DNA from: a virus
Lineage: Duplodnaviria > Heunggongvirae > Uroviricota > Caudoviricetes
IMG/VR virus record: IMGVR_UViG_2563366822_000006
DNA: 5,042 nucleotides
Strand: one strand, 5' to 3'
Both the position numbers and the translations under genes were made by a program. The notes under the pieces were generated by a model, which was not told where the DNA came from, searched no databases, and worked only from the letters and a program-made list of their open reading frames with translations. Positions 1 through 5,042 of this stretch are shown one piece after another. Numbering within the stretch: position 1 is the first letter of the stretch; the number at the start of each line of letters is the position of its first letter.

Positions 1-185
1 GCGCTGAAATTTCTTTTTTTCATTGGAGCACCTGTGTTGTTCTGAGGTGAGCATATCACCTCTGTTCAGGTGGCCAAATTCAGTGTGCCACTTCAGGGAT
101 TATTATCGGGTGCACTGATGCTGTATCGACAAATTATCATGACCGTACATCATATTACTCCGATAAAGCAATAGAGACACAGTAT

Positions 186-482
186 GTGAGTTCATCTGAA
201 CGTACTTCTGATGTTAGTGAGGATATCCGTCTGTATGCCCATCAAATCAAGAGCGCCATCGAAAAACAGTTCGGGGATGCGAGTAAGTATTCAGGAAAAG
301 AGTGTACACTGAGAATGCATATGGCCCCGAATGGCCTTCTACTGGAGGTTAAAAGAGAAAGTGGAGACCTCGATTTATGTCGTGAAGCGATGAATGCGAT
401 AAAGAATGCTGATATACCTGCCCCCCCTTCGCCGGAAGTATATAAAGTATTTCAAAATGGGGTGCTGGATTTTAAACCCTGA
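186..482 (+). CDS. TolA C-terminal domain (domain III)-like protein, no recognisable signal peptide; possibly a decayed or frameshifted paralog
   Basis: The 98-aa translation aligns by eye to E. coli TolA domain III (YAxQIKSAIE...GKxCTLR...APxGxLL...GDxxLC...PPSxxVYxVFxNxxLDFKP, ending in the same DFKP C-terminus) and keeps both cysteines of the TolAIII disulfide. The start is GTG (186) with only a weak Shine-Dalgarno sequence, and the in-frame upstream stretch (51-185) has no start codon. Confidence 0.6.
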   Translation: MSSSERTSDVSEDIRLYAHQIKSAIEKQFGDASKYSGKECTLRMHMAPNGLLLEVKRESGDLDLCREAMNAIKNADIPAPPSPEVYKVFQNGVLDFKP

Positions 483-632: not shown

Positions 633-1028
633 GTGGGATTAAAGAAAATCGTTATGTTGACTTTTGGGGTCGGTTTTGTTGCGGGATGCACACCTTTACA
701 CCCTTCAGATTGCCACAAAACTACTGCTACAGGTAGTTGCAGTTCAGGACGCTGGGATGATCAGGATGAATGGGGGGCGCAAGCGCGGGGAATCAGAGCT
801 GCAATTAATGCCAAACTTGATGAGCCGCATAACTGGAAAGGGAAAAAATGCAGGTTGCATATGGAATTCTCTCAGGATGGCACGGCGTTAAAAATATCTA
901 CCAGTAACGGTGATAAAGCCTATTGCGAAGCGATAAAGTCCGCAGCTCATAAAGCCAAATTTCCGGCCTTCAACAATCCGGAAGTCTACAGAGATTTTCA
1001 GAAATCTGGCTTTGACATGCGAGGTTAG
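633..1028 (+). CDS. Predicted lipoprotein carrying a TolA domain III-like fold
   Basis: GTG start 6 nt after the Shine-Dalgarno sequence GAGGAG (621-626). The N-terminus MGLKKIVMLTFGVGFVAGC has a basic n-region, a hydrophobic h-region and the lipobox VAGC. The C-terminal ~80 aa conserve the TolAIII pattern (GKKCRL...DG.L...GD..YCEA...AK.P....PEVY.DF) including the two-cysteine pair. Confidence 0.7.
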   Translation: MGLKKIVMLTFGVGFVAGCTPLHPSDCHKTTATGSCSSGRWDDQDEWGAQARGIRAAINAKLDEPHNWKGKKCRLHMEFSQDGTALKISTSNGDKAYCEAIKSAAHKAKFPAFNNPEVYRDFQKSGFDMRG

Positions 1029-1153: not shown

Positions 1154-1177
1154 AGCTCGCTACGGCGAGCTTTTTAT
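1154..1177 (+). terminator. Rho-independent terminator (stem AGCTCGC / GCGAGCT, loop TACG, then TTTTTAT)
   Basis: Perfect 7-bp GC-rich inverted repeat followed directly by a T-tract, between the TolA-like lipoprotein gene and the holin gene. It could be a moron terminator or a tR'-like late terminator. Confidence 0.6.
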
Positions 1178-1279
1178 ATTGCATCGTCTCCAGCATATAT
1201 ATCAATTAAGGCTCTGATTGATGTGTCTGGAAGCCTACACATAATAACTATGCCATCCGTTCCGTGCGGAGGTGAGGCT

Positions 1280-3411: not shown

Positions 3412-3615
3412 GGTAGAAAATATTACAAACCATATTCACTTTAGATGCCCGTGTTGCCATGGTTCTCAGTATAGAACATCATCTTTTGATGTTTCTGACA
3501 GAAATCCTTTCGGGGCAAAATGTATCTTTTGTAAATCAATGATGATTACATTTGATAATATTTCACAATACTTAAATGTTAGCCATCTGTCGTTAGATTT
3601 AAGAAAGTGAAAATG

Positions 3616-4761: not shown

Positions 4762-4855
4762 TCACCATAACTGCTAACCATTCTGACCATTTCACAATGT
4801 GTAAGTTCACAGAGATATTGCAATTGCCTCCGGATAAGTAAGGGGAGATTGCACT

Positions 4856-5023
4856 ATGCAAATGCAGCATCTGATGGTTGGCTATCCTAAGTACTACCAA
4901 ACGGCCGATTATGCGTTGAGGCTTTCAGTGATGGCTGATATAGCAACAATGAAGTGGTCAACAAAAACTGGCCACCGAGTTAGAGTTTTTCCAGTATCGA
5001 TTTTCCGATTCGTTTGGGGGTAA
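4856..5023 (+). CDS. Hypothetical small ORF (55 aa); may be a gene remnant
   Basis: ATG preceded by Shine-Dalgarno AAGGGGA (4840-4846), ending at TAA 5021-5023. It is absent from the ORF track (below the length cut-off) and shares a weak GYP-centred motif with the preceding ORF. Confidence 0.25.
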   Translation: MQMQHLMVGYPKYYQTADYALRLSVMADIATMKWSTKTGHRVRVFPVSIFRFVWG

Positions 5024-5042
5024 TCCACCGTTATATTCGTGC

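Follow-up and report, generated by a model that had tools for sequence, protein, structure and literature searches.

A leaderless TolA-like reading frame in a prophage as the very probable 3' remnant of a lipoprotein gene interrupted by IS911

Near the left end of the prophage stretch analysed here (5,042 nt in length and referred to as the window), a short open reading frame (ORF) codes for a TolA-like domain that keeps both disulfide cysteines and has no signal peptide. The question is how a domain of this kind came to be encoded without an export signal. The ORF starts with GTG, and as read from the sequence this codon is preceded, 10–13 nt upstream, by GAGA only, which makes a weak ribosome-binding site. 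In the same frame, the ORF list and translation show that 51–185 is open, contains no ATG, GTG or TTG, and encodes GIIIGC at 96–113. A sequence-only reading of the window had described these features correctly, along with a hydrophobic stretch in frame 1 (1–45) ending at a stop and a T7 run at 14–20, both of which are present. It had proposed a lipoprotein gene whose 5' end was lost by a frameshift, possibly through slippage at the T7 run, leaving a leaderless fragment. The features of the TolA-like region are the following:

186–482, plus strand: longest ORF in the remnant, with GTG start, 98 aa, no signal peptide and a weak Shine-Dalgarno sequence
216–479, plus strand: region homologous to TolA domain III, equal to residues 55–142 of the intact protein
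96–113, plus strand: signal peptide/lipobox remnant G-I-I-I-G-C, with the codon of the lipidated Cys at 111–113 (compare MGFRSASILTLIISGIIIGC, followed by TDA, in the intact orthologue)
96–482, plus strand: 3' 387 nt (codons 15–142 and the stop codon) of a 429-nt prophage lipoprotein gene, very probably a pseudogene through IS911 insertion
421–427, plus strand: C7 homopolymer inside the TolA-like gene, in frame in the window, with C6 variants elsewhere

The translated segment 51–479 matched the Pfam family TolA_C (PF06519) with an E value of 2.3e-23 and 82.7 bits (cutoff 25) over profile positions 4–96 of 96, and the remnant matched the PDB entries for TolA domain III (1S62, 3QDP and 1TOL) with E values of about 1e-27 (best 5e-28), 52 of 88 residues being identical. 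The TolA assignment is far above chance. In the alignment, the cysteine codons at 303–305 and 378–380 correspond to the cysteine pair of E. coli TolA domain III, as had been supposed from the window alone. These residues, C84 and C109 in the numbering of the intact protein, are invariant columns in an alignment of 8 sequences, and formation of the disulfide itself is predicted.

A search of related prophages for an intact, longer lipoprotein ORF, which the sequence-only reading had suggested as a check, found a 142-aa ORF at the orthologous loci. In E. coli 55989 the gene is a 429-nt CDS annotated 'tolA', and its 142-aa product (WP_000506936.1; MGFRSASILTLIISGIIIGCTDAVSTNYHDRTSYYSDKAIETQYVSSSERTSDVSEDIRLYAH...LDFKP) begins with MGFRSASILTLIISGIIIGC. 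In this protein a basic n-region leads into a hydrophobic core and then the lipobox (I-I-G-C), and about 35 residues of low-complexity linker connect these to a TolA-III-like domain. With the lipobox pattern [LVI][ASTVI][GAS]C, the N-terminus of this orthologue (R4, hydrophobic core, I-I-G-C) is predicted to be a lipoprotein signal peptide, with Thr, not Asp, at position +2 after the lipobox Cys; from this Thr, sorting to the outer membrane is predicted. Variants sharing 91%, 74% and 66% identity also end their signal peptides in a lipobox Cys (MGFRSASTLTLIAGGIIVGC, MYCRAVPVLVLILASLTTGC and MYCRGLPVLVLIFACLTAGC, respectively), and the Cys column is conserved in variants of 65–91% identity as well as in the paralogue described below. 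Judged by the intact orthologue, the IIIGC of the window is thus a real lipobox, as had been guessed.

At the 55989 locus, the TolA-like gene is preceded by genes for RusA, a Q-type antiterminator and two tRNAs, and is followed by a second TolA-C-domain gene and then by holin, DUF1327, lysozyme and Rz-like genes; the arrangement in phage mEp460_ev081 is the same. A sigma-70-like site matching 10 of 12 positions (TTGAGC-18-TATAAT) ends 30 nt before the ATG of the intact gene, which is preceded by GAGG. The exact 142-aa sequence was found on at least 1000 contigs, versus 76 for the 98-aa product, and the 5' 161 nt (the promoter-proximal region and first 44 codons) are uninterrupted in 786 of the 790 complete E. 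coli genomes that have them. These sequence comparisons indicate that the long, 142-codon form is the real gene.

Megablast with positions 1–1100 of the window as the query against 5,426 complete E. coli genomes located the point at which the window departs from this gene. At least 80% of the query was covered in 774 genomes, with every best match beginning at base 96 and showing 99.9% identity, and from base 96 onward the window is collinear with about 780 of the complete genomes. Positions 96–482 align with the 55989 gene (WP_000506936.1) without a mismatch or an indel, and the sole mismatch to 55989 within 96–1100 is at position 666, in the next gene. The homology breaks at 95/96, exactly at the IS911 terminus (...CACTTCA). 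In the 55989 alignment the break falls between ...ATTATTAGT and GGGATTATT..., the codons on its two sides being ...ATT ATT AGT and GGG ATT ATT ATC GGG TGC..., and in the window the IS end adjoins GGG and replaces everything to the left of it. IS911 is thus positioned between codon 14 (AGT) and codon 15 (GGG), 42 nt into the gene. Where the start codon, the n-region and most of the h-region should be, the window has IS911 sequence, and of the lipoprotein signal peptide only G-I-I-I-G-C is left in the window's own copy. The earlier proposal of a lipoprotein gene that had lost its 5' end and become a leaderless fragment therefore stands, whereas a frameshift as the cause does not, since 96–482 contains no indel.

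The sequence to the left of the break was assigned as follows:

1–95, minus strand: left end of IS911 (IS3 family), from IRL through the 5' leader to the seventh codon of orfA, identical to the IS911 of Sf6 at 94 of 95 nt
60–95, minus strand: IRL, the 36-bp terminal inverted repeat of IS911, with its outer end, 5'-TGAAGTGG..., at base 95
1–23, minus strand: start of IS911 orfA (ATGAAAAAAAGAAATTTCAGCGC = MKKRNFS), orfA beginning at base 23

In a search of phage records, positions 1–95 matched (E=8e-40) the annotated 'insertion sequence:IS911' of Shigella phage Sf6, the matching segment being the orfA-bearing end of the element on the opposite strand. The element ends at base 95 with ...CCACTTCA, also read as ...GTGCCACTTCA, which is the 5' terminus of the inverted repeat, and the outer bases of this IRL match those of the IRR found from 4950 onward. 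The minus-strand translation of 1–23 (ATGAAAAAAAG) equals the N-terminus of Sf6 IS911 OrfA. The terminal inverted repeats of IS911 measure 36 bp and its OrfA has 100 aa (PMC2909936); positions 1–95 contain such a 36-bp repeat, with 5'-TG...CA-3' termini and with orfA just inside IRL. The same 95 bases match thousands of unrelated places in the complete E. coli genomes, plasmids included. The remainder of this IS911 copy lies upstream of the window, in which a single junction is visible. The earlier reading had also considered that the upstream sequence might belong to an unrelated conserved gene, which would have spoken against it; this was right in spirit, the upstream sequence being IS911.

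With the IS identified, its breakpoint exact, the intact orthologue in hand and the lipobox conserved, we consider it very probable that the TolA-like ORF is the 3' remnant of a 142-codon prophage lipoprotein gene, made a pseudogene by IS911 between codons 14 and 15. We further infer that IS911 arrived by a simple insertion and left a remnant with neither expression nor function. In the window, the promoter-like site, the ribosome-binding site, the ATG and the first 14 codons no longer adjoin the rest of the gene. The severed codons account for the n-region and most of the h-region, i.e. 14 of the 20 signal-peptide codons, so that 96–482 offers no export signal and, ahead of GTG 186, no in-frame start. 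Any fragment that was translated would stay in the cytoplasm, apart from the partners of TolA-III and from disulfide formation, both periplasmic. The copy is accordingly taken as a pseudogene. The partners known for TolA-III (the N-terminus of TolB, g3p-N1 and colicins A and N) are without exception met in the periplasm (PMC7391070, PMC4339652), so that a cytoplasmic fragment is expected to be inert. No promoter-like site comparable to that of the intact locus faces the remnant within 1–185, where the sole match is a 9/12 site at 126–153. A functional product from ORF 186–482 seems unlikely, judging from these features; low-level translation from GTG 186 is possible. Since no difference from intact copies has accumulated in the remnant, the event is recent.

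A simple insertion would make two predictions for the sequence beyond the left edge of the window: i) a 3-bp target duplication, GGG, so that the IRR would be preceded by ...TTACGTTGATTATTAGTGGG and GGG would form a direct repeat, and ii) ...ATTATTAGTGGG about 1.25 kb upstream, directly abutting the IRR that belongs to this IS911 copy. The same element, with ends 98.9% identical, interrupts another gene of a lambdoid phage, gene 54 (ninG) of Sf6, which is annotated 'disrupted by insertion sequence IS911'; that case involves another target gene and another site, and the window shows one IS junction only. The knock-out of a prophage gene by an IS is an ordinary event of an already understood kind. 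The correct annotation of the window's copy would be 'pseudogene, disrupted by IS911', a case of routine insertional inactivation in an IS-rich genome.

Megablast did not find the IS911/TolA-like junction in the complete E. coli genomes, exact patterns across it (37 and 23 nt) had no match in GTDB species representatives, IMG/VR or JGI metagenomes, and the products of three junction-spanning ORFs had no match in a look-up of exact products. The allele therefore appears to be private to the source lineage, as far as those collections go.

This result also bears on the possibility that the IS end and the gene were joined not by transposition but by recombination between IS911 copies, or by an adjacent deletion or inversion, the 5' end of the gene then being elsewhere or lost. 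In addition to the junction being found in no other genome, a second IS911 end lies at 4950–5042 in the same orientation, together with a nested fragment of the IS481 family, which indicates an IS-rich genome, a setting in which such events are common. However, the breakpoint is exactly where transposition would put it, at the end of the IS, the window can be explained without any rearrangement, and the gene would be affected in the same way by either event. We therefore regard this origin as unlikely.

The right end of the window deserves description in its own right. Positions 4950–5042 are the IRR end of the second IS911 copy, which matches the IS911 of Sf6 at 92 of 93 nt and is oriented as is the copy at 1–95. 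Direct IS911 repeats thus bracket a 4.85-kb segment containing the TolA-like genes, the lysis cassette, cspI, ynfN and gnsB, and this arrangement would allow the segment's loss by recombination or its transfer as a composite unit. Homology to the intact prophages ends at about 4798–4801; next comes, at 4802–4949, the left end of an IS481-family element whose transposase ATG is at 4856. Copies in EPEC E2348/69 and other strains match this fragment at 100% identity, and IS911 cuts it at 4950. The nested insertions of the IS481-family element and IS911 point to an IS-rich source genome.

Another reading would take the 98-aa GTG product as a genuine, functional, leaderless and cytoplasmic TolA-III protein. 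The ORF is intact and the 98-aa product has been called on 76 contigs, one source naming it 'TolA protein (fragment) of prophage'. We examined ten loci chosen via this reported product, a selection biased toward truncated forms, and each of the ten was found to have its own lesion upstream of the GTG:

L005: IS1, upstream of the GTG
L006 and L007: IS2, in either orientation, upstream of the GTG
L004, L008 and L010: insertion of a T, upstream of the GTG
L012: deletion of a T, upstream of the GTG
L009 and L013: two different nonsense mutations, upstream of the GTG
L011: start-codon mutation ATG>AAG, upstream of the GTG

A different upstream lesion at every examined locus indicates that the 98-aa product is a by-product of gene disruption, and the proposal that these GTG products are true leaderless orthologues was rejected on this ground. 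Furthermore, the intact orthologues do not share a leaderless start at the same GTG, the finding that would have counted against a lost 5' end, but all carry signal peptides. The Shine-Dalgarno sequence is weak, and the known partners of TolA-III as well as the disulfide are periplasmic (PMC7391070). A functional leaderless protein is hence very improbable. Decay of the TolA-like gene is shown by these loci to be recurrent, not to be the norm, the sample being biased. IS1 or IS2 junctions also occur in further homologous variants, namely P0076 (Shigella sonnei), P0052, P0081 and L027. Over these E. coli and Shigella genomes the gene has been inactivated independently, by IS2 in both orientations and at several sites, and some of the IS2 junctions give rise to fusion ORFs leading out of the IS (MTSLKTSIKTITYLSDIGCLEIQGASL-...).

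An assembly artefact, i.e. a repeat-induced chimera formed at an IS copy, was considered because IS911 is present in multiple copies and both ends of the window lie in IS911. The join, however, is precisely at the terminal base of the IS, and complete genomes have IS1 or IS2 in this gene through separate insertions, which shows such events to be real and common, so we give this explanation very little credence.

Slippage at the T7 run, with the frame-1 hydrophobic stretch as the original signal peptide, can be dismissed: a T7 run and a hydrophobic peptide do occur upstream in another frame, but they belong to bases 1–95 and hence to IS911, the run being the A7 of the orfA start region on the other strand and of the same length in the Sf6 copy, and no indel separates 96–482 from the intact gene. 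The frame-1 translation of 1–45, ALKFLFFIGAPVLF followed by a stop, with its hydrophobic end LKFLFFIGAPVLF, is what the IS911 leader and orfA start give when read in antisense, and the true signal peptide (MGFRSASILTLIIS) is unlike it.

The gene interrupted by IS911 is the first of two. The features that complete the pair are:

633–1028, plus strand: intact paralogue, a second TolA-C-domain lipoprotein (MGLKKIVMLTFGVGFVAGC...), with a GAGGAG ribosome-binding site upstream
1154–1179, plus strand: intrinsic-terminator-like hairpin (1154–1171) and T-run, at the same site in the intact locus

The paralogue matched PF06519 with E=1.3e-14, is 29% identical to the product of the first gene over its full length, and also belongs to PHROG 5772. 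Starting from GTG 633, it has a proper signal peptide (MGLKKIVMLTFGVGFVAGC) with a lipobox Cys; RefSeq often calls a 124-aa form from an internal Met, which lacks the basic n-region. The IS911 copy upstream may have a polar effect on expression of the paralogue. This hairpin marks the end of the cassette of two TolA-like genes and lies before the holin gene. From its layout, the cassette looks like a promoter-genes-terminator 'moron' occupying a slot between Q and the holin gene. Prophages of this group (loci L015–L024; 1500–4450 of the 55989 locus) vary in the cargo that they carry between the Q antiterminator/tRNA genes and the holin gene: in place of the TolA-like pair, which brings a promoter-like site and a terminator of its own, there may be a lipocalin gene with an AraC-family gene, or cspB/cspF-like genes.

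The intact family corresponds to PHROG 5772, annotated as of 'unknown function'. It was found in 1 of 50,697 deposited phage genomes and in about 780–890 of the 5,426 complete E. coli genomes (approximately 15%). PADLOC gave no match for the TolA-like family, and a literature search for a role of prophage TolA-like lipoproteins returned nothing relevant and no described function. Two profiles bear on its name. The TolA equivalog NF007065 gave a score of 107.8, below its cutoff of 213, with only profile positions 293–386 of 387 matching. The model TIGR02794 gave 75.6 (cutoff 59.45) and was passed only through its C-terminal approximately 100 positions, which explains the name given by PGAP. Neither the transmembrane domain I nor the helical domain II, which couple full-length TolA to TolQR, is found in this protein of 142 aa. 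Judging from these comparisons, the PGAP name 'cell envelope integrity protein TolA' is an over-call, and the protein is not TolA.

PGAP has treated the gene inconsistently, annotating a 142-aa CDS in some genomes, such as 55989 (L001), and elsewhere marking only the 261 nt homologous to TolA as a 'tolA pseudogene, incomplete, missing N-terminus' (504838 and B4103-1). B4103-1 is so annotated despite 99.9% identity to the window over 96–1100, and for roughly 60% of the genomes listed in two spread samples of the matches, the 5' part was without annotation. The notion that most E. coli copies are pseudogenes was rejected, since PGAP tends to annotate only the TolA-homologous part, as 'missing N-terminus', even where the 142-codon ORF is intact. 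Given the three forms in RefSeq (a 142-aa 'TolA', a 'pseudogene missing N-terminus' and a 98-aa product), automated readers will keep flagging this gene.

The window's own copy matters little, and the sole part worth following up is the uncharacterised, well-conserved intact family of stand-alone TolA-III lipoproteins, for which a role in tolerance to colicins or filamentous phages, or in lysis, is plausible. The domain shares 59% identity over 88 residues, including both cysteines, with E. coli TolA domain III (approximately residues 334–421; 1S62, 3QDP/3QDR and 1TOL). The positions of TolA-III kept in the prophage protein include D336, I337, Y340, A341 and Q343–E349 of alpha2, which reads D-I-x-x-Y-A-x-Q-I-K-S-A-I-E in the alignment, and L-D-F-K-P of beta3, which includes D418 and K420. 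The alpha2 and beta3 regions contact g3p-N1, ColN and the N-terminus of TolB (PMC4339652, PMC7391070), and the backbone amides of D418 and K420 make beta-strand addition with the same three partners (PMC4339652). Unlike E. coli TolA, the prophage protein has a lipoprotein signal and a short linker in place of transmembrane domain I and the long helical domain II, and its gene is prophage-borne, between the Q antiterminator/tRNA genes and the holin gene.

We tentatively suggest, as a possibility short of an even chance, that PHROG 5772 is a prophage 'moron' in which domain III of the host TolA has been captured in the form of a tandem pair of lipoproteins, acting as a periplasmic decoy or interfering with Tol-Pal or lysis. 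A decoy would intercept ligands that use TolA-III by beta-strand addition, such as g3p of Ff phages, colicin N and colicin A, and would thereby make lysogens tolerant. Alternatively, with expression from the late operon, the protein could compete with TolA for the N-terminus of TolB and loosen the outer membrane for lysis or vesiculation. A TolA-III decoy uncoupled from TolQR would be the most economical mechanism, as far as the domain layout suggests. The affinity of ColN is about 1 uM for TolA and about 40 uM for TolB (PMC4339652); with such values, a decoy present at a modest level could intercept incoming toxins or phage proteins with little effect on Tol-Pal, and strong expression from the late operon could instead disturb Tol-Pal and make the outer membrane weaker at lysis. 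If the suggestion is true, the recurrent knock-outs by IS1, IS2, IS911, indels and nonsense mutations could reflect a cost of interference rather than neutral decay of the prophage.

The proposed protein may be compared with Llp of T5 and Cor of phi80/N15, which are likewise small phage or prophage lipoproteins, in their case of the outer membrane, that face the periplasm, interfere with an import pathway and so block a route of entry. Both Llp and Cor act on FhuA. The TolA-like protein, in contrast, would mimic a periplasmic hub, TolA-III, and the likeness would be functional only, no sequence relationship being claimed. Llp is described in bioRxiv 10.64898/2026.03.26.714494.

Two minor observations concern sequence variation and annotation in the window. 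In E. coli 504838, C6 in place of the C7 at 421–427 shifts the last approximately 19 codons and removes the beta3 strand LDFKP, and the same C-terminal frameshift is found in a Logan assembly (P0059). The 61-mer around this tract differs somewhere in 47 of 776 complete genomes, and the C7/C6 difference could be either real length variation or a homopolymer error of long reads. Lastly, a ymcF/ynfQ-like zinc-ribbon ORF at 3422–3610, directly after the cspI-like gene, contains no ATG, GTG or TTG start and was missed by the ORF lister for this reason. It was rejected as an anomaly, being identical to the RefSeq ynfQ of E. coli 1428, in which ATT is the first codon.
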